DNA from: a virus | IMG/VR virus record: IMGVR_UViG_3300044634_004833 | Span: 1 to 64,000 of that record | Strand: one strand, 5' to 3' | Length of the DNA stretch: 64,000 nucleotides | Shown here: piece after piece, positions 5,813-60,439 of the stretch | Layout of the letters: each line of letters begins with the position of its first letter | Numbering within the stretch: position 1 is the stretch's first letter | Notes under the pieces: model-generated | Database searches by the model: none | What the model was told of the DNA's origin: nothing | Seen by the model: only the letters and a program-made list of their open reading frames with translations | Translations under genes and position numbers: made by a program

Positions 5813-6442
5813 TCAATTAATATTTTTACCTTCTTTGAGAAGCTTGAGTCCCTTTTCGGTCAGGATAATAAAATCCCAGTTTCTTTTTTTGCAATAAGAA
5901 CCTGCCGCAGACCACTTTGCTAAATTTTTTGGAAGCTTTGTTTGATTTTTAGGCTTGATTTCCCATAATTGCATTTTGCCATTTGCATATTCAACTAAAA
6001 TATCTGGGATATATTTGTGACCATACCCTTCAAACATGTAATCTATTTCAATTGGCTCAACACTGTATTTTAATACATCTTTTTTTGTTTCTAACACTTT
6101 GTAAAATTGACATTCAAGGCCAGACCTGAAATAAAGTTCTTTATTATTTTTTTTAGAAAAGAAAAATCCTGTTTTAAACTTTGGCAACTTTTTAGGCCTT
6201 TTTGCAAATGCGTCTCTAAGAATAAGCGGTCTTAAAGGATAGTCTTTAGGTATCGTTTTTTCAGGATGTTTTATAGCATAGTGCTTTCTAAGTTCTCTTA
6301 AAGGCATTTTGCATTCAGGACAAACAATGTAATCTGTACCTTCTTCATGATTATTAAGAATATGATTTCTAAATCCTTCAAGATTGTCGAAGGATTCGAA
6401 ACAAACAAAGCAGGTGTATGATCTTTGTCTATTGATCATCAA
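5813..6442 (-). CDS. C2H2 zinc-finger + TnsA-N/T4 gp4-like endonuclease
   Basis: CFVC..H..H and CPEC..H..H, then FRSGLE, EP..I.Y, YIPD, EIKP. Confidence 0.8.
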   Translation of the reverse strand: MMINRQRSYTCFVCFESFDNLEGFRNHILNNHEEGTDYIVCPECKMPLRELRKHYAIKHPEKTIPKDYPLRPLILRDAFAKRPKKLPKFKTGFFFSKKNNKELYFRSGLECQFYKVLETKKDVLKYSVEPIEIDYMFEGYGHKYIPDILVEYANGKMQLWEIKPKNQTKLPKNLAKWSAAGSYCKKRNWDFIILTEKGLKLLKEGKNIN

Positions 6443-6845
6443 TTAAAATGTTTTCTTTTTCTTTGGATCCAGCAACTGGCTCATCAGTTATTTTATTTTT
6501 TAGCTTTTTAACAACTTCTTCTTCCTCTATTATTTTGATCTTATCAGCTTTTGGTTTATTAAAGCCAACGGAGTTGTTAACAACAGGGTCGCTAGATCTA
6601 TCATTAAGAGCTTTTTCTACATCTACAGCAGTAAAAACAACATCTGGTTCTAATCTGTGTCTTGAATTAATGTCCATCATTGTTGCAAAAACCATTCTGT
6701 CATCTTCCCCAGCTGCATAATACTTGTCTTCAAATTTAAAAAACATTATTAAATTATGAGAATCAAAGAAAGAACGAATTGAATCTGCATCTGCTTCACT
6801 AATTATAAATGTTTTAAAATCTAATAATGTTGAATTGTTGCTCAT
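6429..6845 (-). CDS. hypothetical protein with CTS-like N-terminus (DFKTFIISE)
   Basis: ORF; motif shared with neighbouring proteins. Confidence 0.65.
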   Translation of the reverse strand: MSNNSTLLDFKTFIISEADADSIRSFFDSHNLIMFFKFEDKYYAAGEDDRMVFATMMDINSRHRLEPDVVFTAVDVEKALNDRSSDPVVNNSVGFNKPKADKIKIIEEEEVVKKLKNKITDEPVAGSKEKENILIDDQ

Positions 6846-6862
6846 ATTAACATATATATTAT
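6846..6862. promoter_or_regulatory. 17-bp divergent spacer with palindromic TATATA (candidate bidirectional late promoter)
   Basis: ATTAACATATATATTAT between two divergent ATGs; no SD on either side. Confidence 0.45.
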
Positions 6863-7225
6863 ATGCAAAGTTTAAATTTTAAAAGGTTTTTTGAGGAAGC
6901 TGATGGAGCAGATGCCGTAGGTGCTTTGACAAGCTTTTTAGGTATCGATCCTAAAGATATACCAGAAGTTATGGTAGAACCAAAGCTATTATCGCAAATG
7001 GTTTTTGGCAAACAACAAGTTTCTGTAGCTCCATATGAAGTAAAACCTGTTTATAGAAATGGAAATTGTGTTGGAGCTTATTTAAAAATAAATCCAGAAT
7101 ATTCCAAACCATCTTATGTTTATATTAATTCATCTTTAAATAGTAATAGAAATAAAAAAATTCAAGGAGCAATATCATTAGATAGTTTAGATAAATTATT
7201 AACACTAGGATTACAAGCACAATGA
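6863..7225 (+). CDS. hypothetical protein with CTS-like N-terminus (NFKRFFEE)
   Basis: ORF; shared motif. Confidence 0.65.
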   Translation: MQSLNFKRFFEEADGADAVGALTSFLGIDPKDIPEVMVEPKLLSQMVFGKQQVSVAPYEVKPVYRNGNCVGAYLKINPEYSKPSYVYINSSLNSNRNKKIQGAISLDSLDKLLTLGLQAQ

Positions 7226-7425
7226 TTACTAATTTTAAAGATTGGTTAAAAATACAAGAAACCACCACAACATCAAATGTAGTTTCTGGAGCATCTGGTA
7301 CAGATACTGGAAATATTGCTTCATTTAAAATGCCAGTAGGCGGTGGATTGCTCAAGAATAATAATGCAAATAAAAATCAATATAGAAAATGTGGTCTGGC
7401 TGGTTGTCCTCAAAAAAGTAATTAA
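7222..7425 (+). CDS. small protein with CTS-like N-terminus (NFKDWLKIQE)
   Basis: ATGA overlap with the upstream gene; shared motif. Confidence 0.65.
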   Translation: MITNFKDWLKIQETTTTSNVVSGASGTDTGNIASFKMPVGGGLLKNNNANKNQYRKCGLAGCPQKSN

Positions 7426-7577
7426 AAAATTATTTTTAGACACTATATTATTGTGTAACCTTTGTTTTGTTTAATAAATTTTGTTTACTATTATTTTTAT
7501 TTGTTTTTTTAATATTTGATAATATAATAAATATGAGCTTATGAGGTTACAAAAGCGGCAAATATTTGCCACGGTTC

Positions 7578-7613
7578 TGGCGGGGTTTCCGAAAAACCCC
7601 GCCAATTTTTTTT
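7578..7613 (+). terminator. intrinsic terminator
   Basis: TGGCGGGGTTT-CCGAA-AAACCCCGCCA followed by a T-run. Confidence 0.8.
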
Positions 7614-7616
7614 GTC

Positions 7617-7645
7617 TTGATCGCAAATACAATTCGTTTTAGAAT
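7617..7645 (+). promoter_or_regulatory. sigma70-like promoter for thyX
   Basis: TTGATC-17 bp-TAGAAT, then AGGAGA SD and ATG at 7668. Confidence 0.6.
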
Positions 7646-7667
7646 TCTTCAAACACAGGAGAATCAT

Positions 7668-8537
7668 ATGGACGCTCTCGATCTCGTTCCTAATAAAAAA
7701 ATTCAATGCCTCGACCTCGGCTTCGTTGAACTAATCGATGTAATGCCTCGCATCGTCCCAGATGGACAAACCTGCGATTATGCCATTTGCCAAATGGCTA
7801 GAACTAGCTACGGGGCTGGCACCAAAACTGTTAATGAAGACAAGGGTCTTATTAATTACCTTCTTAGAGCAGCGCACACTTCTCCTTTTGAAGCCATAGA
7901 AATAAAAATTCATATGAAAATGCCCATTTTTGTTGCTAGACAAATGATTCGGCACAGATCAAGCAGCGTGAATGAGTCGTCATTAAGATATAGTGTAACA
8001 AAAGATGAATTCTATTTACCAACTGCACAAGAATTAAGACTTCAATCTAAGACAAATAAACAAGGTTCTGAAGGTGCATTAGATTTAGAACAAGCAGAAA
8101 AATATGTAAAGATTATAGAAGACCAAAGTAGAGAGTGTTATAAATGGTATTTGGATATGCTTGATGCCGGAATATCCAGAGAACAAGCCAGAATGATTCT
8201 TCCAGTCAATCTTTACACAGAATGGTATTGGAAACAAGATTTACACAATCTTATGCATCTAATGGCATTAAGATGCGACCACCATGCACAATACGAAATT
8301 CAAGTCTATGGCAATGCCATTTTGGAAATCGTAAGACACCTATGCCCTTGGACTATCGAAGCATGGGATAAATACCACCCCCTCCGTGGAGCAATAAAAC
8401 TAACCAGCCTTGAAAAAGATGCTATTAAAAAACATAATATAGAAAACAATTCTATTTCTTCGATAGGAGAAATAGCCACAGAAAATAAAAGAGAACAGGG
8501 AGAATGGAAAACGAAAGCTAAAGAATTAGGATTTTAA
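7668..8537 (+). CDS. thyX: FAD-dependent thymidylate synthase
   Basis: HTSPFE, RQMIRHR.SS.NE.S.RY, EQARMILP, HAQYEI. Confidence 0.95.
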   Translation: MDALDLVPNKKIQCLDLGFVELIDVMPRIVPDGQTCDYAICQMARTSYGAGTKTVNEDKGLINYLLRAAHTSPFEAIEIKIHMKMPIFVARQMIRHRSSSVNESSLRYSVTKDEFYLPTAQELRLQSKTNKQGSEGALDLEQAEKYVKIIEDQSRECYKWYLDMLDAGISREQARMILPVNLYTEWYWKQDLHNLMHLMALRCDHHAQYEIQVYGNAILEIVRHLCPWTIEAWDKYHPLRGAIKLTSLEKDAIKKHNIENNSISSIGEIATENKREQGEWKTKAKELGF

Positions 8538-8561
8538 CAAACAGAATACTAAATATTAATT

Positions 8562-8996
8562 ATGGAAAACTTTATCAATTGGCTTAAAAAAGAAAAAGAA
8601 GTTAGTGCAGAGGAAATCAACAATTCCTCATCTGTGGAGGACATTATTAATAATGTCAAAGCAGTTTGTGTTGACAAATTAAGTATGCAGACAGAAGAGC
8701 AGGTTCCTGCAGCCAAGATTCCCGCTCCACAAACGAAGCCCATGAGTTCTCCAACCGTTGGGGGAGGCAAAGGACAAGTTGCCGGGCCACAGAAAGTGGT
8801 TCCACAACAAAAGGGACAAGCTCCTGCACCACAACAACCACCCGGACAACAACAAGCTAGGCCTTTGGTAGGTGATGGTGGGACTGCGCCAGCCCAAATT
8901 CAAGGACAGAAAGTTAATTTGCCAACTGACCCTACGGCAAGAGAAAAAATGCTTAAAGCCATGCTACAGCGTGGACAAGGGCAAGTTAAAAAATAA
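8562..8996 (+). CDS. Gln/Pro-rich protein with CTS-like N-terminus (NFINWLKKE)
   Basis: TAAATA 6 nt upstream of ATG, no SD; low-complexity body. Confidence 0.65.
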   Translation: MENFINWLKKEKEVSAEEINNSSSVEDIINNVKAVCVDKLSMQTEEQVPAAKIPAPQTKPMSSPTVGGGKGQVAGPQKVVPQQKGQAPAPQQPPGQQQARPLVGDGGTAPAQIQGQKVNLPTDPTAREKMLKAMLQRGQGQVKK

Positions 8997-9022
8997 TGCA
9001 GACTTTTTGTCTGCATTATTTT
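8992..9022. terminator. bidirectional terminator between convergent genes
   Basis: AATAATGCAGAC-TTTTT-GTCTGCATTATT perfect stem flanked by A and T runs. Confidence 0.75.
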
Positions 9023-9039
9023 AATTTTTGAATTAATAA

Positions 9040-10014
9040 TCAAAATTTCCAGCGCAATTTTCTTAATGGGAATCCTTCGACTCCGCTATAGCAGAAGCTA
9101 TCTCCTTGTTTTAGCATTCTGTCTATTACGCTGCTGTGTGCATAGAAGCCTGCTGGGCTTGGATTGCCGGGACCAATATTATTGGTTCCCATATAAAGAC
9201 CCCAGCTATTTAAAATGAAACCATATTCTTGACCTTCTATTGTGGCGTATCCCAAAATTGCCATTTGGTGCGCCCAAGATCCGCTAGGACGACATATACC
9301 ATTCTTATCTCTGCTTGTTGTAAATCCTTGATTAGATGCAACACTTAATGCATAGCCTTGAGCTAATGCTTTCTTGGCAGAAGTCCAATCAGAAACTTTA
9401 GTGGTTGATTTTACAGGATGCTTCTTAACTAGAGGCTCTAAATCATTTGGAACTCCACTCGATCCCCATTGACGGCATAATGACTGAGAGTAATTTGTTA
9501 AATCATATTTGCCATCTAGGAATACTCCACGATTAATAATTCCATATGTATTAACAAATTTAGCAGCCCATGCACCGATGGAGCCATCGCCACGCAATCC
9601 GCCATTTCCTATTTCAATCCTACTTCCTCCATATACAACTTCTTGAACAAGAGGTTGGAATTCTTCATTTTGTCCTTGTGCTATCTCAATGCACATAACA
9701 TGTTCTATTGCTGAACAGCAACCGAATGCGACACAGCTTCCGACTTGACCTTGGTTGCGAGCAGGTAGTACATCACCAGTAACTTGTTTGGCAAAATCCC
9801 AGAGGTATACATGGTCTGGAAGTTCTTCGTCAGCATATGAAAAAGCAGGTGCCTCTGTGAAGTCTTTGATAGGTAGAGTATCGACTATGGCGGTAACAGC
9901 TACTGGGTCATCAACCCACCCGAATTCAACGCCATCTGGCACATAAGTAACTGAGGAATCAAAGCCTTCATTGGCTAGATTAGTCATATATGTTAAATAA
10001 TGTTCATTAGACAT
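9040..10014 (-). CDS. papain-like (C1) cysteine peptidase
   Basis: NQGQVGSCVAFG (Q, C), WAHQM (H), ILNSWG (N). Confidence 0.88.
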   Translation of the reverse strand: MSNEHYLTYMTNLANEGFDSSVTYVPDGVEFGWVDDPVAVTAIVDTLPIKDFTEAPAFSYADEELPDHVYLWDFAKQVTGDVLPARNQGQVGSCVAFGCCSAIEHVMCIEIAQGQNEEFQPLVQEVVYGGSRIEIGNGGLRGDGSIGAWAAKFVNTYGIINRGVFLDGKYDLTNYSQSLCRQWGSSGVPNDLEPLVKKHPVKSTTKVSDWTSAKKALAQGYALSVASNQGFTTSRDKNGICRPSGSWAHQMAILGYATIEGQEYGFILNSWGLYMGTNNIGPGNPSPAGFYAHSSVIDRMLKQGDSFCYSGVEGFPLRKLRWKF

Positions 10015-10729
10015 TGATGCCTCCTAGAGCGGTTAGTATTTTATTGAAGTTAGCTTTAATTTTTGTTCTGACTTCTGGTGTTAAAGAAGTGTTGCTATCG
10101 GTTCCGATTTCAGCGTCTGATTTATCGGCGCACATTTCTCTAATAGAGTCAATTTTTCCAGATTGAAGATTTCTATTTGAGAATGTTTTTACAGTAGCAA
10201 ATAGATCTCCTTGTGTTTTGTAATTAGGATTATCTACTTCCTTTAGGGCAAAAGAGTAGATGCTTATTAACTTTTTTACAGAAGCCGACTTGTCTTGTTC
10301 TTGTAATCCACCGTACATACTTTGAACAGCTTCATTGAATTGCTGGTCAGGAGGTGTTGGCGGAACAGGATTTGGCGGCATGGGACCGGGAGGAGTTGGC
10401 GGCACAGGATTGGGTGGCAATGGATCTGGACCGGGGTTTCCGACAACGAGTGTTGTGATGGCGGGATTACTTGGTTTGTTATCAATAGAGGTATAAGCCA
10501 GAACTCTGTATTTTCCTGGTTTTGATGCTACAACAACAGTAGTTTTTCTATCTGTTAGTAGATTTGATGGGAAAACAGATAGTCCTGCGTCTAATGGGAC
10601 GAATTGTACAATTTCGCCTTTTGTTACGGCGGTAATTGGAATGAATACAGAGGGCTCTCCCTTGACTGTTTCTGGCAGAGATATGTCTTGTCCAGAAATT
10701 AAAAACGAAGCGAATAATTGTAAGAACAT
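10007..10729 (-). CDS. exported protein with Pro-rich linker
   Basis: hydrophobic N-terminus, beta-rich domain, PPNPVPPTPP repeated twice. Confidence 0.75.
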   Translation of the reverse strand: MFLQLFASFLISGQDISLPETVKGEPSVFIPITAVTKGEIVQFVPLDAGLSVFPSNLLTDRKTTVVVASKPGKYRVLAYTSIDNKPSNPAITTLVVGNPGPDPLPPNPVPPTPPGPMPPNPVPPTPPDQQFNEAVQSMYGGLQEQDKSASVKKLISIYSFALKEVDNPNYKTQGDLFATVKTFSNRNLQSGKIDSIREMCADKSDAEIGTDSNTSLTPEVRTKIKANFNKILTALGGINV

Positions 10730-10738
10730 TTTTTCTCC

Positions 10739-11224
10739 TTATAGTTTTACTGATTCTTTGGTTTGTTCTTTAGATGTCCATTCTTCTATGGCTTTTATAA
10801 CAGCATCTAAAAGTTGAGGTCCATATTTTTGAATAAGAAATGGTAACAGCTTTTCAAATATAACACTTATAAGTTTTGGATTAAGACCTTTTATGTCTAA
10901 ATCTTTGAATAGAGTTGCTATTTCGGGGTCTGATTGTATAACATTTCCTAGTTCTGAAAATGGTTCTTGTTGTTCTCCGACAAGTCCTTTTGGTTTTTCT
11001 TCTTTTGTTTTCCACAAGGATACAATAAAGTCTAGAACTGTAGGGCCAAATAAACGCAGGCATTCCATTACAAATGGAAGGCTAAATCCATTTTTTAAAG
11101 CCGAAGAAACAATACTTAGTACTGTTGGGCCATATTTATTTAATAATTCTCCAACATCAGATGGTGAAAGACCAAATGATTGGGCTTCTAATATACCTAG
11201 TGATTGTGTTTCATTGTTTGACAT
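10739..11224 (-). CDS. amphipathic-helix repeat protein
   Basis: three (Y/F)GP.(V/L)L repeats. Confidence 0.65.
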   Translation of the reverse strand: MSNNETQSLGILEAQSFGLSPSDVGELLNKYGPTVLSIVSSALKNGFSLPFVMECLRLFGPTVLDFIVSLWKTKEEKPKGLVGEQQEPFSELGNVIQSDPEIATLFKDLDIKGLNPKLISVIFEKLLPFLIQKYGPQLLDAVIKAIEEWTSKEQTKESVKL

Positions 11225-11226
11225 GA

Positions 11227-11877
11227 TTAATTGCCTTTCGGTTGTAAGTTGTCCAATATGTCTGTGAATAATTTTAAATCTTTTGGAATGTTGCCAAAAT
11301 ATACATTGTTATTTTTAGTATCTTTTACAATAAGCATTCCTTGTGGAAAATTCTTAGAAGCATCTTTATATTGATCATCTGATAAAGAAGCTATATCAAT
11401 AGTTTTAAATGTTATACTGTTATATTTGCCGCCAAAATCTGTATATGGAACATTTATTATTTTGTTTTGTTCTGTGGTTAAAGAATTGTAATTTACATAA
11501 ATTGTAACAGAATATTTATCTGATGGTTTTTCTGGGGCTTTTGCTCCTTCTACTGTTATTTTTGTATTTGCAAAATCTGTTAATCCATTTTTTGTATTTG
11601 CTATAGCAAAAACATTAATAATTGATATGTCTTCAACATTATTAAATGTTAAAGTTTTTTTTGTTGAATCTTCTTTGTATAGACATGGTTTATTTGAAAT
11701 TACCAGCCATTTTACATTACCTTCTGTTCTAGCATTTACAACTATTTGTTTTGTATTTGGTAAAACTTTTATATCTGGAGTCAATTCTAATCCCGGCACA
11801 GCATTTAATTTTTGTGATTGGGATAAAGCAAAATTTGAAAGTAGAAATAATAAGGCTATAGATAATATATTTTTCAT
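11227..11877 (-). CDS. exported protein, N-domain paralogous to 10007..10729
   Basis: signal peptide MKNILSIALLFLLSNFALS; AAGGAG SD. Confidence 0.7.
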   Translation of the reverse strand: MKNILSIALLFLLSNFALSQSQKLNAVPGLELTPDIKVLPNTKQIVVNARTEGNVKWLVISNKPCLYKEDSTKKTLTFNNVEDISIINVFAIANTKNGLTDFANTKITVEGAKAPEKPSDKYSVTIYVNYNSLTTEQNKIINVPYTDFGGKYNSITFKTIDIASLSDDQYKDASKNFPQGMLIVKDTKNNNVYFGNIPKDLKLFTDILDNLQPKGN

Positions 11878-11930
11878 AGGGCTCTCCTTACTAATTGTAT
11901 GTATACAATTGGAATTTTTTCCTACTGAAT

Positions 11931-12025
11931 ACTATATTGAATTTGGGAAGCGAAATAATTGCTTGCCATGTTTTTCTCCTGCTCTCAGAGCGTGTAATTT
12001 TTCGGAATTACACGCTCTTTTTATT
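11931..12025 (+). ncRNA. candidate small RNA (5' hairpin, pyrimidine-rich anti-SD linker, terminator)
   Basis: ACTATATT box; stem 11944-11968; TTTTTCTCCTGCTCTC linker; 13-bp perfect stem 11987-12018 with TTCG-containing loop and T-run. Confidence 0.45.
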
Positions 12026-12028
12026 TAT

Positions 12029-13399
12029 ATGGACGAATTACTTATTGACTTTTTAGCCAAAGATTCAGAATCTAATATTAAAATTAATGTTATTGGCGAT
12101 TCAATGTTTGATGAATATCACAATGTTGAAGTTAAAAGAATAAGCCCGGAATTTCCTATTCCTGTATATAAATCGAATTCTGAAGTGGCATCTAATGGCC
12201 TTTTGCCTGGTGGAGCCGCTAATGTTGCGGCTCAATTAAAATATTTTAATGTTAATGTCGAGTTGGTTTCTTTAATTACGAATTTGGCGAAAGTAGTATT
12301 TGAATCGAATGATGTTAGTACAAAATATTCAAAAATAATAGACAATATGCAGATTCCCACGAAGAGAAGAATATATTCTGAAGGAATTCCTTTGGTAAGG
12401 TGGGATATTGAAAAAGAAAATTTTGGTTTAGATGATATTAAAAAATATTTGATGGATTTAATTATTCCTGATAGTGATTTCAATATTTTTTCTGATTATT
12501 CAAAAGGTTTGTTTAGTTATCCTTGGTTTAGGAAATTTTTTAATCAAGCTCCTTCTTTGGTAGATCCTAAAAATTCTGAAATAGACTTTTGGCAAGATTG
12601 CACTTATTTTAAGCCAAACAGCATAGAGGCTAGGTATTTATCAGAAAAAAAGAACTGGAAAGATCAAATTGAATATTTTATTGATTCAATAAGATGCAAG
12701 CATGTTGTAATTACACAAGGTGGAAATGGAATAGTAGGAAAAGATGAAGATTATTTTGAATACAATCCAAAAGACTTATCTGTAAATCCAGAAAGTTTGG
12801 TAGGGGCAGGAGATTGTTTTGCAGCATTTTTATCGATGGCAGCATGTCGAGGATTCAAGTTGGAGGATGCTGCAAAGATAGCTTATGTTGCCGGTTCATT
12901 GTATGTTAAGAGGAATTTTAACAAGCCTATAAGTCCCGGCGAATTATTGATTCATGCTGGAATTAAACATGTCACAGCCCCGCAGATTTTACAAAACAGA
13001 AATTTTAAATTAGTTGCTACAAATGGTTGTTTTGATTTGGTTCATGCTGGCCATTTGCAAAGTCTTAGGTATGCAAAGCAACAGGGAGATCGTTTAGTAG
13101 TATTGATTAATTCTGATGATAGCGTGGCAAAATTGAAAGGTGACTCCAGACCTATTTTGCCACTTCACAATAGACTACAGATGATAAAGAGTCTGGACAT
13201 GGTTGATTTTGTTGTTGTTTTTGATGAAAACACACCAGAAAATGTTCTTAGGAAAATAATGCCAGATGTTCTAGTAAAAGGTACTGAATACGAAAATAAA
13301 GAAGTGGTTGGTAGTAGCTTTATCAAGGAAATAAAGCTTGCTCCTATGATCAAAGGCATCTCTACAACGGATATTATAAAAAAAATAAAAAATTCATAG
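12029..13399 (+). CDS. hldE: bifunctional heptose-7-P kinase / heptose-1-P adenylyltransferase
   Basis: IGDSMFD, RISPE.P, GGAANVA, SDYSKG, VDPK, KPN..EA, GAGD; C-domain TNGCFDLVHAGH, NSD.SV..LKG..RP; likely start 12029. Confidence 0.9.
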   Translation: MDELLIDFLAKDSESNIKINVIGDSMFDEYHNVEVKRISPEFPIPVYKSNSEVASNGLLPGGAANVAAQLKYFNVNVELVSLITNLAKVVFESNDVSTKYSKIIDNMQIPTKRRIYSEGIPLVRWDIEKENFGLDDIKKYLMDLIIPDSDFNIFSDYSKGLFSYPWFRKFFNQAPSLVDPKNSEIDFWQDCTYFKPNSIEARYLSEKKNWKDQIEYFIDSIRCKHVVITQGGNGIVGKDEDYFEYNPKDLSVNPESLVGAGDCFAAFLSMAACRGFKLEDAAKIAYVAGSLYVKRNFNKPISPGELLIHAGIKHVTAPQILQNRNFKLVATNGCFDLVHAGHLQSLRYAKQQGDRLVVLINSDDSVAKLKGDSRPILPLHNRLQMIKSLDMVDFVVVFDENTPENVLRKIMPDVLVKGTEYENKEVVGSSFIKEIKLAPMIKGISTTDIIKKIKNS

Positions 13400-13412
13400 T
13401 AAATAACTTACT

Positions 13413-13664
13413 ATGAAAAAATTCTCTATTTGGATGGAAGAACGGCTACACGAATTGGCAGCGCCGGGGCAGCAGCCTGCTACTGGTACAGCCCCAGCTA
13501 CTACCAACACTTCTGCTACACAAAAAAACGATCCTAATAGTCCTGCATACAAACTTTTGTTGGCTAAAAATATTGGCAAAGTGATGACAGGCAATAAAAA
13601 AGACACTTTGGCAAACCAATTGGCTTTAGCTGTTGGCGCTACAGGTGAAGGGAAACAAGTTTAA
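13413..13664 (+). CDS. small protein with CTS-like N-terminus (KFSIWMEE)
   Basis: TAAATA 7 nt upstream of ATG, no SD. Confidence 0.65.
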   Translation: MKKFSIWMEERLHELAAPGQQPATGTAPATTNTSATQKNDPNSPAYKLLLAKNIGKVMTGNKKDTLANQLALAVGATGEGKQV

Positions 13665-13825
13665 TGACCTTCAAAGAATTTATAAAAATGGATGAGCATA
13701 AATGGAATAATCATGGTGGAGATAGAATGAAAACAATGAGTTCTCATATTAGAAAAGCTTTGCACACAAGCAGAAAGCCTTATATGGGAAGCATACATGA
13801 TTTTAAAAGTAAAAAAGGAAAGTAA
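13664..13825 (+). CDS. 53-aa basic protein with CTS-like N-terminus (MTFKEFIKMDE); not in the ORF track
   Basis: translated by hand; TAATG coupling to the upstream gene, and the next ATG follows 1 nt after its stop. Confidence 0.7.
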   Translation: MTFKEFIKMDEHKWNNHGGDRMKTMSSHIRKALHTSRKPYMGSIHDFKSKKGK

Positions 13826-13826
13826 G

Positions 13827-15179
13827 ATGTTTGTTGATATTTCTTTTGCTGAATGGCTATTGTTTTCGGAAATGGCAGTTGGTGGTGCGCCACATACATT
13901 CTTGCAGAAGAATCCAAGAAAGCCAGATCAGTCAGATCAGGATTTTATGGTTGTAGCCGGAAATACATTTCCTGTGAAAGATGATTTGAAGAGTGCTGGA
14001 TTTCAATTTTATATGCCGACAAAAACATGGAGCATACCTAGATGGAAATACAAAAGCATGAAGCCAGATTTAAAGGTTAGTTTGGAAAAGAAAGGAATTA
14101 GTTTTGATCCATTCGATATGCCAAGGGAGCAGATGCTGCCCCAAGAAGCACAAGAAAAAACGACTGACGAACAAATAAAAGATGACATTGAAAAAATTGC
14201 TAAAATGAGCAAAAATCAGCAGTATGAAAAGCTTGATGAAATGTTAGAAAAGCTTATCGATGATATTGGCACAATGACAGACGAAGCGAAAAAGAGTCAG
14301 TTGGTTAAGGACTTTTTGGCTATTGCAGCAAAGCTTTATCAATATTCTCCAAGAAACCAATGGCTAATATTTATCCAAAATCCTAAAGCTACAGATGTTC
14401 AAAGCGTTACCAAGTGGCAAAAGCTTGGCAGAAGACTTAAGCAAGGTGCTGATAAGAATAAGATTGCAATCTTTATTCCAATAGTTAAAAAAGAAGAAGC
14501 TATAAAACTTTCACAAGAAGAAGAAGAAAGATTAAAAGACCCACAAATTGAACCGTGGGAAGAAATCGAACTCAGAGATAAACAAAGAGGCGCAGCAACT
14601 GTTTATGGATACAAGATTGGTTATGTTTACGACATTCAAGATACAGAAGCTATTCCAGGTGCAAAAGCATATGATCCAGTATCTTATAGAACAGATAAGA
14701 ATGAGCCAGTTGAGGAATTAAAAGGAATTGTTGCAGCCTTATTAAATTATGCAAGCGAAAAAGGAATTCCTGTAACTTTTGAAGGCATGGATATAAAGAC
14801 TGGTGGATTTGCAACTAAAGACAAAGTAGTAATAAATAATACTTTTGATGGTATTAATAAAGCATCGGTCTTAATTCATGAGCTAGCACATAAATTTTTA
14901 CATTTTGGTCCCGAGAGAAAATCTTATAGAACTAAAGAGGAATATCAAATTGGAGAACTTGAAGCTGAATCAATAGCATCAATTGTATTAAACTTTTTTG
15001 GCTTCAATCCAACTACAGCTCCAAATTATCTTGCTTTATGGCGTGGCGATAAGAAACAAATCAAAGCCAGATCTGAAACTATTAAGAAGGGTGTTCAGGA
15101 ATTTATAAAAGCAATTGAAAAATATTATAGAGATTCTCATGTTCATGAAGACGAGTTTGAACAACAAGAAACAGTATAA
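13827..15179 (+). CDS. ArdC/LtrC-like ssDNA-binding domain + zincin metallopeptidase, CTS-like N-terminus
   Basis: YSPRNQWLI..Q.P.AT.V....W..LGR (ArdC-N-like), HELAH...ELEAE; N-terminus SFAEWLLFSE. Confidence 0.75.
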   Translation: MFVDISFAEWLLFSEMAVGGAPHTFLQKNPRKPDQSDQDFMVVAGNTFPVKDDLKSAGFQFYMPTKTWSIPRWKYKSMKPDLKVSLEKKGISFDPFDMPREQMLPQEAQEKTTDEQIKDDIEKIAKMSKNQQYEKLDEMLEKLIDDIGTMTDEAKKSQLVKDFLAIAAKLYQYSPRNQWLIFIQNPKATDVQSVTKWQKLGRRLKQGADKNKIAIFIPIVKKEEAIKLSQEEEERLKDPQIEPWEEIELRDKQRGAATVYGYKIGYVYDIQDTEAIPGAKAYDPVSYRTDKNEPVEELKGIVAALLNYASEKGIPVTFEGMDIKTGGFATKDKVVINNTFDGINKASVLIHELAHKFLHFGPERKSYRTKEEYQIGELEAESIASIVLNFFGFNPTTAPNYLALWRGDKKQIKARSETIKKGVQEFIKAIEKYYRDSHVHEDEFEQQETV

Positions 15180-15330
15180 TTAAAATAATATTAATTAATT
15201 AGTTTAAATAGATACCAAATATTTATTTTTTGCTAGTTTGTATTAATTTTGTTTTATATATAAATAAAGTGTTTAGTATGAATGAAATGTGTGTAAGAAA
15301 GGATTTTTAGTAATATATAGGAGGTTTATT

Positions 15331-15600
15331 ATGTCAAAGCGCTTTGATTTTGGTGAAGACGATTTCTTCAAGAAAGACGACGACGGCAGCAGCGAAGAAA
15401 TAAACTTCAGAGATGAGTTGTTTGCAGCACAGCAGGAACAAACAGATCTTTTGAAAATGGATGTAGACGAAAAGATTTTAAATGATGCAATATCTTTGGC
15501 GAGTAAAGATTGGATTTGGTGTTTTAGAAGTGCAAAAAGTAAAATTGATATTATTGCTAGAACATATAGAAGTTTGAAAAAAATTGTTGATAAGAAATAA
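15331..15600 (+). CDS. hypothetical protein
   Basis: GGAGG SD before ATG 15331. Confidence 0.65.
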   Translation: MSKRFDFGEDDFFKKDDDGSSEEINFRDELFAAQQEQTDLLKMDVDEKILNDAISLASKDWIWCFRSAKSKIDIIARTYRSLKKIVDKK

Positions 15601-15621
15601 AAAAATAATTTTTCTAACTTT

Positions 15622-15660
15622 ATTAACCGGAGAGAGAAATCCTCCGGTTAATTTTTTTTT
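15622..15660 (+). terminator. intrinsic terminator-like hairpin
   Basis: ATTAACCGGAG...CTCCGGTTAAT followed by a T-run. Confidence 0.7.
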
Positions 15661-15671
15661 GGAGATAGCTT

Positions 15672-15998
15672 ATGCCTGTCTATGTTTTTACTTGCACCAA
15701 CTGCAATCATTATTATGAAAGTTTAGAATCATTTGATCCAACTGGGAAATACAAACAAGTTTCCTGTACTCAATGTAAATCAAAAAGAAAAAAGTTAGGC
15801 GTAACTGCTGCAGCAATTAAGTTTACAAATCCTAAAGATACAAGTAAGTTTGATAACTTTGACTATCGTGCTGGATATAATTTAGAGCAGGCTCAGAATC
15901 TAAGAAGAGAAGCCGAAAAGGAATCTCATGTTGGTTCTAGTCCGTATAATAGTATAGATGACATAAGTGGCGGCGAGCACTTTGGAGAAGTTGAATAA
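15672..15998 (+). CDS. FmdB-family zinc-ribbon protein
   Basis: MPVY.F.C..C ... C..C. Confidence 0.75.
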   Translation: MPVYVFTCTNCNHYYESLESFDPTGKYKQVSCTQCKSKRKKLGVTAAAIKFTNPKDTSKFDNFDYRAGYNLEQAQNLRREAEKESHVGSSPYNSIDDISGGEHFGEVE

Positions 15999-16019
15999 TT
16001 CAAAGATTGGAGAAGTTTA

Positions 16020-18092
16020 ATGAGCAAGCTTAGTGAAATTGGAAAGAATTACAATAAAGAAGAATTTACAGTAATAAACGAAGAAATTAGCTTTGATGAG
16101 TATTTGGAAAAAATTTATAAAAATCCAAAGCTTGTTAGAACATCATATCAAAGATTGTATGATATGATTGTTTCTTGTGGTTCTTATGAAGTTGAAAAAT
16201 ATAGAAAAATAATAACACATTATAAGTTTTTTGACGATTTGTCTATACCAATTTTTGGATTGGAAGAAACTCTTGATAGATTTGTTAAGCACATTAAGGG
16301 TGCTGCGGGTTTTTATGGTACTGAAAAGAGAATTTTGCTTCTACACGGGCCGGTTGGTAGTTCCAAGAGTACGATTTGTAGATTGTTGAAGAAGGGTTTG
16401 GAAAAGTACAGTCGTACTGATGATGGTGCGTGGTATTCTTTTAAATGGGTAAATCTACCAACCGGCGCAGATGGTCTTTATGTTTCTGAAACAGATATGT
16501 GTCCTATGCACGAAGAACCTCTTCGTTTGCTTCCATTGGAAATGCGACAAGGTGTTTTAAAAGAACTAAATAAGGTTCACAGGGAACAAGCTGAAGAAAG
16601 TAGCTTGCCTACTTTGTATTCATTAAATGTTGAAGGTGAGTTAGATCCAAGATGCAAGTTTTTTATGAAGAGCTTGCTTAAAAAGTATAATGGAGACTGG
16701 GAAAAGGTTATTGAAAATCATATTCGTGTTGTAAGAATGGTTCATAGCGAATCTGACAGAGTTGGAATTGCTACATTTCAACCTAAAGATGAGAAGAATC
16801 AAGATAGCACTGAATTAACAGGTGATATTAACTTCTCTAAGATTAGTCAATTTGGTTCTGATTCAGACCCTAGAGCATTCTCTTTTGATGGAGAGCTTTG
16901 CATCGGCAACCGTGGTGTTGTCGAATTTATTGAAATGTTGAAGCTTGAGCAAGCCTTCTTATACGACTTGCTTGGAGCATCTCAAGAAAAGTCTATTAAG
17001 CCAAAGAAATTTAGTCAGATTCAAGTTGATATGGCTATTATTGGTCACACCAATCAACCTGAATTTGAGAAACTTAAGAACAATCCATTCATGGAAGCCT
17101 TGCGAGATAGAACTGTTAAGATTGATGTTCCATACCTATTAAAATGGACAGATGAATTGAAAGTCTTAGAGCAAGATTACGGCTCAGATAGAGTAAAGCA
17201 GCATGTTGCTCCTCACACATTAGAAATTGCATCTCTTTGGGCAATTCTTACAAGATTGGAAGATGACAAGGACGGAAAGCTTTCTTTGGTTGAAAAGGCC
17301 GAGCTTTATAATGACAAGATGTTGCCGGGATGGACTGAAGACAGTGTTAAGGAACTTCGTGACAAGTTTCCAAATGAAGGAATGAATGGAGGAGTTAGTG
17401 CAAGATATGTGCAAGATAAGATTGCAAATTGTCTATCAGATAGACATGATTACATAAATCCATTTATGGTTTTAAATGCTTTGCAAGATGGATTGGATAA
17501 TCATAGTTTGATTACTAATAAGGACCAAGCAAAGAGATACGCAGATTGTGTTATTTTTGCCAAGAATAAGTTAGATGATATTCTTAAGGCGGAGGTTCAA
17601 AAGGCTTTGATTGGTGATGAGGATGCCGTTGTAAGGTTGTGTGCCAATTATATTGATAATATAATGGCATACATTAACAAATCTAAGGTTAAGAATCCTT
17701 ATACTGGTAGAGAAGAAAGTCCAGATGAAAGATTCATGAGAAATATTGAATCTAAGATTGATGTTCCAGAAAATGGTGTTGATGATTTTAGGCGAATGAT
17801 CGCAGCTTTTATTGGTGAGTTAAGCCATAAAAAGAAGCAATTTCGCTGGGATTCTAATGCTTTGTTAAAGAAAGCGTTTGAAGCTAAATTATTTGAAGAT
17901 ACAAAGGATCATATTAAGCTTTCCAGTTTGCATGTTAGCGGCGCTACTGTTGTAGATGATAAGCATCAAGAGAAAATTGATGCTATAATTGAAAGGATGA
18001 AGTCTTTGGGCTACAACCAACAATCTGCAAGAGATGTGTTGGATTATGTTGGCTCAATATTCGCCCGAGGTGATTTGGCTGACCAAGATTAG
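16020..18092 (+). CDS. prkA: PrkA/YeaG-family AAA+ ATPase / serine kinase
   Basis: LLLHGPVGSSKS, CPMHEEPL, DPRAFSFDG, NRG..EFIE, EALRDR. Confidence 0.93.
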   Translation: MSKLSEIGKNYNKEEFTVINEEISFDEYLEKIYKNPKLVRTSYQRLYDMIVSCGSYEVEKYRKIITHYKFFDDLSIPIFGLEETLDRFVKHIKGAAGFYGTEKRILLLHGPVGSSKSTICRLLKKGLEKYSRTDDGAWYSFKWVNLPTGADGLYVSETDMCPMHEEPLRLLPLEMRQGVLKELNKVHREQAEESSLPTLYSLNVEGELDPRCKFFMKSLLKKYNGDWEKVIENHIRVVRMVHSESDRVGIATFQPKDEKNQDSTELTGDINFSKISQFGSDSDPRAFSFDGELCIGNRGVVEFIEMLKLEQAFLYDLLGASQEKSIKPKKFSQIQVDMAIIGHTNQPEFEKLKNNPFMEALRDRTVKIDVPYLLKWTDELKVLEQDYGSDRVKQHVAPHTLEIASLWAILTRLEDDKDGKLSLVEKAELYNDKMLPGWTEDSVKELRDKFPNEGMNGGVSARYVQDKIANCLSDRHDYINPFMVLNALQDGLDNHSLITNKDQAKRYADCVIFAKNKLDDILKAEVQKALIGDEDAVVRLCANYIDNIMAYINKSKVKNPYTGREESPDERFMRNIESKIDVPENGVDDFRRMIAAFIGELSHKKKQFRWDSNALLKKAFEAKLFEDTKDHIKLSSLHVSGATVVDDKHQEKIDAIIERMKSLGYNQQSARDVLDYVGSIFARGDLADQD

Positions 18093-18103
18093 GAGATCTG
18101 AAC

Positions 18104-18331
18104 ATGGTTACGAATCTTAAGAACAAGTGGCTTACAAATGTTAAAAATCTTCAATTGATTGATGATTTGGACGAGCATCTTATGAATGCATGGGCATCTG
18201 ATGCTACTATCGGTGAGTTTTTGAATAGTTTGCCAGACAACTTGAAAAAAACTTTCCTAAATCTAACTTTAAATGTTCCTGTAAGGACTGATGAAGGATT
18301 TGAGATCAATCTAAATTTGCCCGCTAAGTGA
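18104..18331 (+). CDS. small hypothetical protein inside the prkA operon
   Basis: AGGAG SD, 75 aa. Confidence 0.6.
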   Translation: MVTNLKNKWLTNVKNLQLIDDLDEHLMNAWASDATIGEFLNSLPDNLKKTFLNLTLNVPVRTDEGFEINLNLPAK

Positions 18332-18345
18332 GTTAGTTTTATGGA

Positions 18346-18404
18346 TATCCTGCTTCTTTTTTATTTAAATTTGGTCACCCCAATTTATGAAAAGAAGCAG
18401 GATA
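18346..18404. other. long hairpin, 15-bp perfect stem, TCACCCC in the apical part
   Basis: TATCCTGCTTCTTTT/AAAAGAAGCAGGATA. Confidence 0.65.
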
Positions 18405-18571
18405 CTTACGTTATATCATTTGATATTTAAAAGTAAAAAAACTGAAAATTTTGTTTTAAGCCATATAGATTCAGTTGCTACAATTAATGGAATTAAAATT
18501 TTTTCAAACACAGAAAATGTGATTCTTGTAGAAAATGTAAATTTTTTTGAATATTAAGAAAAGGGGCTGGT

Positions 18572-19750: not shown

Positions 19751-19757
19751 GGTTGAT

Positions 19758-45414: not shown

Positions 45415-45466
45415 TGTTTTGCTATTAAAAAAGATATATATTATGTATTCTTAAGAAAGACATTAA

Positions 45467-54946: not shown

Positions 54947-54966
54947 CCAAATGTATAAAATATTTT

Positions 54967-55323: not shown

Positions 55324-55324
55324 T

Positions 55325-56478: not shown

Positions 56479-56480
56479 AT

Positions 56481-57710: not shown

Positions 57711-57866
57711 ATTTAATTTTTTTTGTAGTATGGAATGCAAATACAATTTTTATTGAAAAATCATAAAAATATTTGAAATTTATCAACAATAAACATAAAA
57801 TTGGAATAAGTTGAAATTAAATGGAAAAAATAGTAAAAAATTGGAAATGAGGAACATAGATAAATT

Positions 57867-58034
57867 ATGGAAATTATTTTAGTCAATATAAGCAAAGCAG
57901 CAAAGATTCTTGGTGTAACAACCAAAACTCTAAGAAACTGGGAAGATCAAGGCAAATTAAAACCTGTTAGAACTTTAGGCAAGCATCGCAGATATAACTT
58001 AGAGGAAATAAAGGCTTTGTTTCAAGAAAAATGA
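57867..58034 (+). CDS. 55-aa MerR-like HTH (IS607 TnpA N-domain only); not in the ORF track
   Basis: MEIILVNISKAAKILGVTTKTLRNWEDQGKLKPVRTLGKHRRYNLEEIKALFQEK; ATGA-coupled to tnpB. Confidence 0.85.
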   Translation: MEIILVNISKAAKILGVTTKTLRNWEDQGKLKPVRTLGKHRRYNLEEIKALFQEK

Positions 58035-59251
58035 TTAGATCAACACAATTAACTTTGAAATTTGCCAATCAAGCAAAGCTTGACAAAGTTAATTATTTTC
58101 TTGATGAATACAAAAAAGTTACTCAATACTTTGTTGATTATCTTTGGGACAATTTTACCATCGGACAAAAGATTCCCAGCCTATTACCAAAAAATATTAC
58201 TGAACAAGCTAATACATGGTTAAGTGCTAGAGCAATCCAAGCAAGTGCTAAACAAGCTTCAGGAATCGTTAGAGGTTGTAGGAAGAAACATGAAAAAAGA
58301 CTTTATATCTTTAATTTGCTAACCAAAGAAGGCAAACATAGAAAAGCCAGAAAACTAGCTAATACTATAAAGAAAAAACCAATATCCAAACCAATATTAA
58401 ACACAATTGAAGCAGAACTTGATGAACGATTTGTTAAATTTGATAACAGTAAAGAAACTACATTTGATACTTGGATTAATATTACATCAATAGGAAATAA
58501 TTGTAAAATCATTTTACCAATTAAAAATCATAAACATTTTAAAGAATTAGAAAATGAGGGAATTCAATTAAAAGGGATTAGAATAAGCAAGAAATCTGTT
58601 AATATAAGTTTTGAAATTCCCGATCAATCAAAAATTGTTGGCAAGACAATTGGGATTGATATTGGAATGAATACTGCTTTTGCCTCAAGTGATAATCATT
58701 ATTCAGAACAATCGTTGAATGGTCATACAATTGAATCAGTCTGCAAGATAATTTCAAGAAAGAAAAAAGGAAGCAAAGGATTCAAAAGAGCTTACAGACA
58801 TAGAAAGAACTTAATTGGTTTTTATAAGAATCAACTTGATTGGAAAAACATCCAAACCATCAAGATTGAAAATATTAAAAACCTTCGATATAAAAAAAGA
58901 ACTTCAAGATATCTAAGTTCTTTTGTTTATCATGAATTCTTTGAACAGTTGAGACAAACTGCTGAAAGACTTGGTGTCCAAGTCCAAACTGTTTGTCCAA
59001 CTTACACAAGTCAAAGATGTTCATGTTGTGGTTGGACTCGCAAGAGAAATCGTAGCGGCAAAAGGTTTAAGTGCAGCAAATGTGGTTATACCATTGATGC
59101 CGACCTTAACGGTGCTGTTAATATTTCTCTTGACCTTGAACCGATAGGTAAAAAGGAACGAGAGAAACGATTAAACTTGACTGGTTTTTATTGGTCAAGT
59201 AAAGTTGATTCTGGACAGGAGCTTATAGTCCCTGTTGTCCAAAAACCTTAA
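58031..59251 (+). CDS. tnpB: TnpB/Cas12f-like RNA-guided nuclease (IS607-associated type)
   Basis: IGIDIG, IKIEN, YTSQRCSCC..CSKC, DADLNGAVNI. Confidence 0.88.
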   Translation: MIRSTQLTLKFANQAKLDKVNYFLDEYKKVTQYFVDYLWDNFTIGQKIPSLLPKNITEQANTWLSARAIQASAKQASGIVRGCRKKHEKRLYIFNLLTKEGKHRKARKLANTIKKKPISKPILNTIEAELDERFVKFDNSKETTFDTWINITSIGNNCKIILPIKNHKHFKELENEGIQLKGIRISKKSVNISFEIPDQSKIVGKTIGIDIGMNTAFASSDNHYSEQSLNGHTIESVCKIISRKKKGSKGFKRAYRHRKNLIGFYKNQLDWKNIQTIKIENIKNLRYKKRTSRYLSSFVYHEFFEQLRQTAERLGVQVQTVCPTYTSQRCSCCGWTRKRNRSGKRFKCSKCGYTIDADLNGAVNISLDLEPIGKKEREKRLNLTGFYWSSKVDSGQELIVPVVQKP

Positions 59252-59320
59252 TTTCATGTTTTTCATGATTTTGAGGAACTATAGTACTTGTAGGCACTCT
59301 TTTTACACCCGTGGTTCGCT

Positions 59321-59662
59321 ATGAAAAAATATGTAAATATTGCCGATAGACTCTTTATAAAAATTATAAATGAGTTTGGATTGATTTTTGAAAATGGAAT
59401 GTATAAACTTACTAATATTAATGATCCCAAATGTCATTTGTTAGAAATATGTTTGATTACTGATAAAGCTAAAATGACTGGCAATAAAATTAAGGATATT
59501 AAAAGCAATTTAAATGTTAGTGAAAAATGGATATTGGGATTTTTTCACGCTAGCAAAAGAGAGCAGCCAAAATTCTCAAACAAAGATTATTTAGATGGTT
59601 ATAAAGAGTGCATAGATACAGAAGAAAAAAATGTGCAAATGCAGTTATTGTGCAAAAAGTAA
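59321..59662 (+). CDS. hypothetical protein
   Basis: 113-aa ORF. Confidence 0.55.
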   Translation: MKKYVNIADRLFIKIINEFGLIFENGMYKLTNINDPKCHLLEICLITDKAKMTGNKIKDIKSNLNVSEKWILGFFHASKREQPKFSNKDYLDGYKECIDTEEKNVQMQLLCKK

Positions 59663-59690
59663 TTTGTTTAATTTTAACTATATAAATAGT

Positions 59691-59981
59691 ATGGAAAATG
59701 ACGTTAGTACATTAGAAAACCCTGTTCAAAGTGCTAGAGAAAGAATTTGGAAAATATTCCTATTCTTTTTGGGATTCCTTCGTTATGTTGGGTTTTTTGT
59801 TTTGGGAATAATTATTGGGATGGGCATAGTTCTTAAAGATCCTCCTGCCAGTAAAGAACAACAACTAAAAATTGTTCAGCTAGAAAAACAAAATGCCGAA
59901 TTAAAAGCCAAAATAGAAAATAAATTTAACGACAAATCAGCCCCAGATGTAAGCATTAAAAATGCTTTTGTAATAGACTAA
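59691..59981 (+). CDS. membrane protein with coiled coil
   Basis: TATATA box 6 nt before ATG 59691; hydrophobic segment. Confidence 0.6.
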   Translation: MENDVSTLENPVQSARERIWKIFLFFLGFLRYVGFFVLGIIIGMGIVLKDPPASKEQQLKIVQLEKQNAELKAKIENKFNDKSAPDVSIKNAFVID

Positions 59982-60439
59982 TCTGGCATTTTGAAGGTAT
60001 CAGGACAAGGGTCTCCCCACCTTTCTGCTTTTCTATCTACCAAATTTGGTGGCAAGCACTGCGGTTCTGATACCATGCATTTTTGTTTGTTTCTATTAGT
60101 AACTTTTATTAATTTTTCATCAGGGTCTGGCGGTAATGGTTTAAATGGCTTGACATCGCCTGGAGGCAATTTTGCTGTTGCTGCGACATATAGTTTTTTG
60201 CCATGTGGCTTTGTCCAAATTGGCACAGGCTTTAAATGATCAATTTTAAATGGTTCTTTTTCCCAGCACTTTTGTAAACGTTCGTCAGCAGATATGTAAT
60301 AAATAGCATCTGCACTACCGGGTAAAAGATATTCAGGAGGATACTGGCCTACACCTCCATATCCAAGAGGATATAAACCAGTTTTTCCACTAGTTTTTCC
60401 TTCATTAATAACTTGTAAATACTCATAGAATTTGATCAT
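59978..60439 (-). CDS. Pro-rich protein with CTS-like N-terminus (KFYEYLQVINE)
   Basis: TAAATA 4 nt upstream of ATG, no SD. Confidence 0.65.
   Translation of the reverse strand: MIKFYEYLQVINEGKTSGKTGLYPLGYGGVGQYPPEYLLPGSADAIYYISADERLQKCWEKEPFKIDHLKPVPIWTKPHGKKLYVAATAKLPPGDVKPFKPLPPDPDEKLIKVTNRNKQKCMVSEPQCLPPNLVDRKAERWGDPCPDTFKMPD

Follow-up and report, generated by a model that had tools for sequence, protein, structure and literature searches.

The first 64,000 nucleotides of the IMG/VR virus record IMGVR_UViG_3300044634_004833 (hereafter the window) carry ten open reading frames (ORFs), otherwise unlike one another, whose predicted proteins begin with a short tag of phenylalanine, two variable residues, an aromatic and an aliphatic residue, usually closed by a glutamate. 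The tag resembles the capsid targeting sequence (CTS) found on T4's internal proteins (IPs), and its nature and spread are the subject of the present analysis. The window is the beginning of a linear contig of 154,941 bp with a GC content of 33%, for which CheckV gives a completeness of ~31%, implying a phage genome of roughly 500 kb. Genes were called by a greedy longest-ORF heuristic (at least 45 aa), which yielded 200 ORFs covering 93.6% of the contig. Several studies have sampled this DNA again in metagenomes of lake water and freshwater: 17 of the 20 sequencing runs listed for it are so labelled, three are labelled only 'metagenome', and no RNA run is among the 20.

Three related sequences are used for comparison. 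The first, C1, is a 271-kb contig of the metagenome-assembled genome (MAG) G001 (CAYVOK01, labelled Acidimicrobiaceae), to which we were led by the family of the tagged protein 116703- (ORFs are named by start coordinate and strand). C1 is collinear with our contig, 182 of whose 200 proteins have a match there, mostly at 60-95% identity. The second, C5, comes from the same MAG (135.6 kb; GC 35.9% vs. 35.8% for C1). The third, LR756511.1, is an uncultured phage of 595,163 bp that is syntenic with both our contig (43/200 proteins) and C5 (43/123 proteins); we take the LR7565xx records to belong to the 2020 'Clades of huge phages' study. The MAG G001 bin holds the large AT-rich phage contigs C1, C5 and C57 (14 kb), with two different T4-type head modules among them, so that at least a part of this nominally bacterial MAG consists of phage DNA binned in error. 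Cultured phages gave zero matches, both by megablast with window positions 6000-16000 and by tblastn with an 843-aa tagged protein. A search for related loci on viral contigs returned nothing with a single tagged protein or a two-paralogue alignment, and only three short IMG/VR contigs (23-40 kb) with a 25-sequence alignment.

A preliminary description of the window had listed the ten ORFs, and all ten start with ATG where it placed them and contain the peptides it quoted. The core is followed by a glutamate within 0-5 residues in nine of them; the exception, 25475-, had already been noted as having no nearby E. The first two genes are divergent orphans that match no Pfam or PHROG family. 6845- (6429-6845, minus strand; 138 aa) opens with MSNNSTLLDFKTFIISE, followed by A, and has a TATAAT/ATATAT box 4-20 nt upstream; its C1 orthologue keeps the tag, with a ratio of nonsynonymous to synonymous substitution rates (dN/dS) of 0.09, and its tblastn match in LR756511.1 at ~364.5 kb is itself a tagged ORF, 364024-364431 (minus strand), beginning MTLGFRQFVELE. 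6863+ (6863-7225, plus strand; 120 aa) opens with MQSLNFKRFFEE, again followed by A, and has the box ATATATATTAT immediately before its ATG; the C1 orthologue is 92% identical, with a dN/dS of 0.04. The TA-rich boxes of the two genes lie back to back (6833-6875), each extending into the first codons of the opposite gene, and may serve as promoters. 7222+ (7222-7425, plus strand), a low-complexity protein of 67 aa, starts within the stop of 6863+ and bears the tag MITNFKDWLKIQE before T. Although its C1 orthologue is just 47% identical and reads MMKNFKKWLELKE, the F, W, L and E are all retained (dN/dS 0.33).

8562+ (8562-8996, plus strand) is a Pro/Gln/Gly-rich protein of 144 aa with the tag MENFINWLKKE before K, a TAAATA box upstream and an identical tag in C1 (dN/dS 0.15). 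Three tagged genes then follow one another on the plus strand. The first, 13413+ (13413-13664), encodes an 83-aa low-complexity protein with the tag MKKFSIWMEE before R and a TAAATA box upstream; its C1 orthologue reads MKKFSIWIEE, with a dN/dS of 0.30. Coupled to it is 13664+ (13664-13825), a basic protein of 53 aa with the tag MTFKEFIKMDE before H, 91% identical to its C1 orthologue (dN/dS 0.07). The third, 13827+ (13827-15179), is an ArdC-like protein of 450 aa whose N-terminal extension of ~150 aa opens with MFVDISFAEWLLFSE, followed by M. The weakest member, 25475- (24969-25475, minus strand), is a 168-aa orphan beginning MVRKTFLEYLN, which has the core without hydrophobic-x-E and an SD-like (Shine-Dalgarno-like) GAGGTG upstream; it sits between the two halves of DnaE on the opposite strand, and its 86% identical C1 orthologue begins MARKTFLEYLN. 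The orphan 39524- (39051-39524, minus strand; 157 aa) bears MEKIEIKFKEFME before F, with the box CATATATTATAG upstream and the tag MNKIEMKFKQFME in its C1 orthologue (dN/dS 0.13). Finally, 60439- (59978-60439, minus strand; 153 aa) has a TAAATA box upstream and the tag MIKFYEYLQVINE before a G, after which comes a conserved GKTSGKTGLYPLGY domain.

Two parts of the preliminary description need adjustment. Several of these genes had been placed antisense to metabolic genes; some do lie on the opposite strand between their neighbours, but they do not overlap them. The proteins had also been called uncharacterised and often of low complexity; only some of them are of low complexity, and one, 13827+, is ArdC-like and so not uncharacterised. 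That the bearers are otherwise unrelated was borne out: all-vs-all blastp at 1e-3 joins a single tagged pair, 90507+ and 116703-. Just two of the tagged proteins could be named through Pfam and PHROGs, a UvrD-type helicase (94369+) and, weakly, an M78-type peptidase (13797/13827+); the remaining scanned ones have no significant match, the scan having covered all but 73256-, 108604+, 109219- and 128176+. A likeness of 136669+ to phosphothreonine lyases is unsupported (0 Pfam families at E ≤0.01).

The tag extends far beyond the window. A pattern of F-x-x-[FWY]-[LIVMF] with an E 0-5 residues further on, starting in the first 20 residues, is matched at the N-terminus by 28 of the 200 contig ORFs. 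This corresponds to 28 matches in 4,000 N-terminal positions vs. 24 in 44,349 internal ones, a 12.9-fold excess (Fisher p = 2.7e-17). With a wider pattern, which allows [FY] first and requires a start at residue 12 or earlier, 29/200 ORFs match, whereas 300 trials in which residues 2-30 were shuffled averaged 2.5 matches, with no more than 8 in any trial. The family of about ten that it had recognised thus exists but is about three times larger, numbering about 25-28 proteins on the contig. At least 16 further clear bearers lie downstream of the window, with tags such as MKFKEWILIE, MKSFLKWLNE, MNFKEWLDKNE, MKNFIEFLAE, MKFKLWLIE, MNNFTEWLQINE and MITFKEFME. The match in 32509+, within the window, is counted as chance because its LR756511.1 orthologue is untagged, and 67215+ and 97236- are doubtful by eye. 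The enrichment also recurs in the relatives: 34 of the 376 ORFs of C1 are tagged, as are 46 of the 1,076 of LR756511.1, where shuffled sequences average 9.0 matches and never exceed 19.

Aligned on the phenylalanine, the tags give the consensus M-x-[TNK]-F-K-E-[WF]-[LI]-(0-4 residues)-[LIMF]-x-E. The F stands at residues 3-11, most often at residue 4, with the aromatic at +3 and the aliphatic residue at +4; W is the commonest residue at position 7. While the F and the [WFY] three residues on are present in all bearers by definition of the pattern, the first glutamate falls mostly 5-8 residues past the F, and a hydrophobic residue stands two before it in 21/27. In the T4 record, IPII and IPIII begin MKTYQEFIAE, as the preliminary description had stated for the CTS, and IPI begins MKTFKEFTSTTTPVSTITE (MKTFKEF...). 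According to section 2.6 of PMC9026906, IPIII needs no more than its first 10 residues to be packaged, targeting resting mainly on residues 4 and 7 and processing on residues 8 and 10. The T4 residues Y4, F7, I8 and E10 have their counterparts in the tag's F, aromatic, aliphatic residue and Glu, and the T at -1 and the E at +2, neither of which is imposed by the pattern, are also common to both. The start of 13664+ in particular resembles those of T4 IPI (MKTFKEF) and T4 gp61.1 (MKTFKEFIKED). We note that gp61.1 (NC_000866, 18966-19130, minus strand), a hypothetical protein of 54 aa, has a CTS-like start that closely resembles the one of IPI, and yet is not annotated as an internal protein.

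Selection on the tag acts on the peptide. Compared with their C1 orthologues, nine of the ten ORFs in the window give dN/dS values of 0.04-0.33 at a dS of at least 0.57, and the short ones of 53, 67 and 83 aa are among these nine. The codons of the motif vary synonymously (TTT and TTC for F; TTA, CTT, CTA, CTC and TTG for L; ATA, ATT and ATC for I), and where the tags of orthologues differ, as in the two forms of 7222+, the residue classes (F, aromatic, aliphatic, E) are kept. Two families show how the tag relates to the protein that it precedes. For 60439-, [LIMF]-x-E immediately precedes the conserved domain in 44 of 44 homologues, although their tags range from 10 to 20 residues; INE-G and LNE-G are the commonest junctions, and one homologue reads MKTFWQFLAE before G. 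For 116703-, the core is kept in 104 and [LIF]-x-E, mostly then A or T, in 99 of the best 120 of 178 homologues, and in a 53-sequence alignment F5 and E13 are invariant. The tag is thus a genuine N-terminal feature under selection as a peptide, and it is modular and conserved from one family to another.

A further property of the tagged genes is the TA.ATA box, which the preliminary description had associated with them. It lies within 30 nt upstream of 18/29 tagged vs. 29/171 untagged genes on the contig (p = 1.3e-6), an association repeated in C1 (17/34 vs. 36/342) and in LR756511.1 (31/46 vs. 122/1,030). The earlier statement that most window members either have a box of their own or are coupled to a gene that has one also proved accurate: seven of the ten have their own, and 7222+, 13664+ and 13827+ abut or overlap the tagged gene upstream. 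In most tagged genes the box stands a few bases before the ATG, with no Shine-Dalgarno sequence (SD). The box resembles the core of the T4 late promoter; we do not call it a late promoter because no homologue of T4 gp55 was found in the contig or LR756511.1. An extended promoter of TTGCAT plus the box was considered and rejected, as no more than 3 genes of the contig have it before their start and the pattern cannot be generalised.

The candidate cargo includes the ArdC-like protein 13827+. HELAH occurs at residue 361 of the 460-aa reading that starts at 13797, and the ORF has a dN/dS of 0.10. PF06114 (M78) reaches 21 bits, just below its cut-off of 22 bits, a PHROG metalloprotease matches at 1e-6, and the protein itself has no PF08401 match at E ≤0.001. 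The ArdC assignment comes from its 107 homologues, most of which have a precomputed PF08401 (ArdcN) match, some with PF06114 in addition; four are named 'antirestriction protein ArdC' by JGI, and for one of those with PF08401 (P0188) the figures are E = 2e-55 and 33% identity over 95% of the query. A phmmer search of the ArdC-like protein against the PDB gave nothing. Among the long, phage-type homologues 23/58 carry the tag, and among the short ones of ArdC length 0/49 do, which indicates that it was added to an existing enzyme. The ArdC of plasmid R388 is described in the relevant part of PMC7213743 as a single-stranded-DNA-binding domain joined to a metalloprotease that is needed in the recipient cell against type I restriction, and T4 IPI* is likewise needed early in the newly entered cell (PMC3012670, in the portion dealing with it). 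A phage would gain by bringing an ArdC-like protein ready-made, as T4 does with IPI*. The phage form has the HExxH region of its ArdC-annotated homologues and probably also their ArdC N-domain; it differs from R388 ArdC in its ~150-aa tagged extension and in staying, by itself, below the Pfam threshold for ArdcN, and its activity is predicted.

Besides this enzyme, the tagged set includes the UvrD-type helicase (94369+), a widespread, repeat-tailed, virus-only family and about 20 orphans. The repeat-tailed family, represented by 116703-119234 (minus strand) and 90507-93308 (plus strand), has 178 homologues, with four paralogues in C1. Its conserved N-terminal domain of ~400 aa, with invariant C212, C222, GK, QYFxFD and EWVD, is followed by variable helical, ankyrin or leucine-rich-repeat tails. 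The family profile matched only designed helical repeats in the PDB, through the variable tail, and an atlas search returned virus-only unnamed clusters with TM values <0.5; neither a known fold nor a known family was matched. C1, though 80% identical, lacks counterparts of the three tagged genes 133995+, 135234+ and 136669+, which fits accessory cargo with a fast turnover.

The head machinery can be followed in the relatives. The preliminary description had called for a search for a gp21-like protease, which found none on the contig but did find one in both C5 and LR756511.1. C5 encodes, in T4 order, TerL, a portal protein, a 597-aa unknown, a Peptidase_S77 protein (30008-30670) that passes the cut-off and is a head maturation protease by PHROGs, an ORF of 307 aa (30670-31593) that occupies the scaffold position and matches no family, and a gp23-type capsid protein 78% identical to that of LR756511.1. 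The head module of LR756511.1 likewise contains an S77 protease above the Pfam cut-off, and of two ORFs near its capsid gene one is tagged (MEFREWFRSAE), while the other (MLTWTEFLE) has W for F and falls outside the pattern. We infer for the source phage a head module like that of C5. When the capsid proteins are aligned, FLTE-AE of T4 gp23 corresponds to LINE-V in C5 and LFNE-I in LR756511.1, so that hydrophobic-x-E is kept. We take the T4 stretch to be the gp21 cut site on gp23; if gp23 is cut at the aligned hydrophobic-x-E, the protease of this lineage probably keeps the rule that ends the tags.

Two other observations concern these head genes. LR756511.1 encodes a second, diverged Peptidase_S77 (242621-242989, minus strand; 34.8 bits) far from its head module, which recalls the protease paralogue of SPN3US. 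The slot between portal and protease, that of gp67/gp68 in T4, is occupied by a protein of 597-616 aa with no PHROG match (C5 28181-29974; LR756511.1 526639-528489, minus strand). It starts MKKKLINFDAFKQLE or MKRKLINYDVFQKISE, a tag-like segment with aromatic-x-x-aromatic that closes with hydrophobic-x-E.

Based on these results, we propose that the tag is this lineage's T4-type CTS, greatly expanded over unrelated genes, and give this reading a probability of about 0.7. In such a scheme, the two aromatics of the tag would bind the scaffold core during head assembly, by which the protein would become enclosed in the prohead; a protease of the gp21 type (Peptidase_S77) would then cut after the Glu and leave the mature protein free in the capsid, and the freed protein would leave with the DNA at infection. 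Core binding, cleavage, packaging and injection are presumed steps, modelled on T4. The phage would probably pack dozens of unrelated proteins for delivery with its DNA, including an anti-restriction enzyme.

Several observations weigh against this proposal. The cargo would be very large, comprising ~14% of the ORFs, with proteins of 843-956 aa and a helicase among them. The tag is looser than that of T4 in the place of its F (residues 3-11) and in its F-to-E spacing (5-12), and the same pattern is not significantly enriched in T4 itself, where 8/264 ORFs match vs. 2.5 expected; only IPII, IPIII and gp61.1 look real, and IPI is missed. Neither the S77 protease nor the gp23 gene was found on the 154,941-bp contig; the link to the protease runs through relatives, of which C5 and C1 are one phage only by inference. 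Microcystis phage Mel-JY01 has an S77 protease and tags on 3/246 ORFs vs. 2.9 expected, showing that the protease alone does not predict the expansion. Internal [LIM]-x-E is barely depleted in tagged proteins (observed/expected 0.95-1.04 vs. 1.07-1.15, significance untested), and an excess of positive charge in them is inconsistent, being seen in just two of the three genomes (p = 0.0006 for the contig, 0.002 for LR756511.1 and 0.9 for C1). By eye, SD-led leaders precede the head genes in both C5 and LR756511.1, in contrast to most tagged genes, and the lack of a gp55 match mentioned above belongs here as well. Finally, the phage encodes a ClpX-like ATPase.

Of the other explanations, the one that survives best, although we consider it unlikely, is that most bearers are parts of the prohead core or scaffold that are degraded in maturation, like T4 gp67, gp68 and gp22, rather than delivered cargo. 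Several bearers are indeed small and of low complexity (67, 83, 53 and 144 aa), the number of tags is very high for injected cargo, and internal [LIM]-x-E shows no clear depletion in the tagged proteins. However, an ArdC-like enzyme, a UvrD-type helicase and proteins of 690-950 aa with conserved domains are ill-suited as disposable scaffold, and the turnover of 133995+, 135234+ and 136669+ between relatives suits accessory genes better than core parts.

Slightly less probable is that the tag serves to dock or sort proteins to some other destination, such as a phage or host hub protein, a chaperone or a membrane reached by an amphipathic helix, with a convergent likeness to the T4 CTS. The tag is short, amphipathic and variable in position and spacing, and the Mel-JY01 case, a protease with no tag enrichment, would suit such a signal. 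Against convergence, the match to T4 spans the four mapped positions plus the T at -1 and the E at +2, the lineage has a T4-type head module, and the tag ends in the same hydrophobic-x-E as the aligned capsid-protein site.

A role as an N-terminal degron or recognition tag for a phage ClpX(P) is improbable. The contig does carry a ClpX-like gene (65607-66830, plus strand; AAA_2 at 1e-29, with a ClpX zinc finger of 26.5 bits, under the 27-bit cut-off), and the ClpP of LR756511.1 (584618-585130) lies within a stretch rich in tagged genes. Yet tag and ClpXP do not go together elsewhere, since T4 has the tag, shown to be a CTS, without ClpP and Mel-JY01 has ClpP without enrichment, and it is hard to see why a phage should mark 14% of its own conserved proteins with a degron. 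We give still less credence to the tag as a leader for a modifying enzyme of the radical-SAM type, given that Radical_SAM (PF04055) is not matched at E ≤0.001 in the contig or the complete LR756511.1 and that the tag is degenerate, unlike a fixed leader of 16-17 residues. Least credible of all, a nucleotide constraint on the opening codons of mRNAs that have a short leader or none, which the TA-rich box right before the ATG and the missing SD of most tagged genes might suggest, is disfavoured because the F, L and I codons vary freely while the residues, and in orthologues the F/aromatic/aliphatic/E classes, are retained, and because the tag varies in length while its E boundary is fixed.

Pfam matches on the contig include a DEAD-box helicase, a fusion of PfkB and cytidylyltransferase, ThyX, giant proteins with RCC1 repeats, a PrkA/DUF444/SpoVR trio, DnaE in two halves, a papain-like peptidase, the ClpX-like ATPase and a TnpB-like protein. 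Within the window, the trio (16020-21359, plus strand) is 55-67% identical to its LR756511.1 counterparts, and the papain-family cysteine protease (Peptidase_C1; 9040-10014, minus strand) has an 88% identical copy on the related contig. Two related TnpB/Cas12f-like genes with a Cas12f1-like TNB domain (58031-59251 and 5-1108, both plus strand) have a mutual identity of 30%. A DnaJ-like gene that adjoins the tagged 39524- (38332-39054, plus strand) has the central Cys-rich and C-terminal domains, its J-domain being unmatched in the scan.

The closest known system is the CTS of T4 IPI, IPII and IPIII, which is cut by gp21 (Mullaney and Black 1996, as related in parts of PMC9026906, PMC3012670 and PMC5694885). 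Both systems place a 10-20-residue N-terminal tag, with aromatics at positions 4 and 7, an aliphatic residue at 8 and a terminal Glu, on unrelated proteins. Both lineages, ours as seen in the relatives, have a portal, an S77 protease and a gp23 module with an ORF in the scaffold position, and in both an anti-restriction-type protein (cf. IPI*) is among the bearers. We note three differences. First, about 25-28 bearers occur in 155 kb here and 46 matches in the 595-kb relative, whereas T4 has three by pattern and four with IPI. Second, the tag here has a W-rich position 7 and a Glu spacer of 5-12. Third, the candidate cargo extends to proteins of 956 aa, with a helicase among them. For the present proteins, packaging and cleavage are predicted.

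The giant phages phiKZ, 201phi2-1 and SPN3US offer a second comparison. As set out in the relevant passages of PMC5694885, they have many internal head proteins whose propeptides are thought to target them to the prohead, and proteases of the gp21 family whose cuts fall after the Glu of (S/A/G)-x-E or A-x-E; in SPN3US, only 8 of about 50 head proteins are processed. Our lineage shares with them the giant genome, the type of protease and, in LR756511.1, the second protease paralogue. However, according to the same passages, the propeptides of those phages are mostly longer than 100 residues, have no common short motif and carry a small residue at P3, whereas the tags here are 10-20 residues long with a hydrophobic P3. 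A looser parallel, drawn from description, is given by the head-packaged anti-restriction proteins of phage P1 (Dar system) and the 'polyvalent proteins' of phages (PMC9024508, PMC12810830, PMC5512222), which travel in the head and enter together with the DNA to act against host defence; loading in P1 depends on specific Dar proteins. Our literature searches turned up no account of an expanded family of CTS-type tags, whether in huge or in uncultured phages. The T4 CTS mechanism itself is known; what would be new is its predicted spread over dozens of unrelated huge-phage genes, with a looser, W-rich consensus and large, putatively enzymatic cargo.

Injected proteins act before phage genes are expressed and decide survival against host defences, and they are known for few cultured phages. 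If the proposal is true, the tag would be a predictor, from sequence alone, of injected cargo in uncultured T4-type phages, and it is near enough to that of T4 for its swap into T4 CTS packaging vectors to be realistic. The phage would carry a fast-evolving, pre-made toolkit including an ArdC-like enzyme, a helicase, repeat-tailed effectors and orphans. Whether a lineage of giant freshwater T4-related phages (~500-600 kb) devotes about a tenth or more of its genes in such regions to a tag-addressed toolkit of dozens of proteins delivered by the virion is, in our estimate, evenly balanced. In that event, the capsid-targeting mechanism of T4 would be old, portable and greatly expanded in huge phages.

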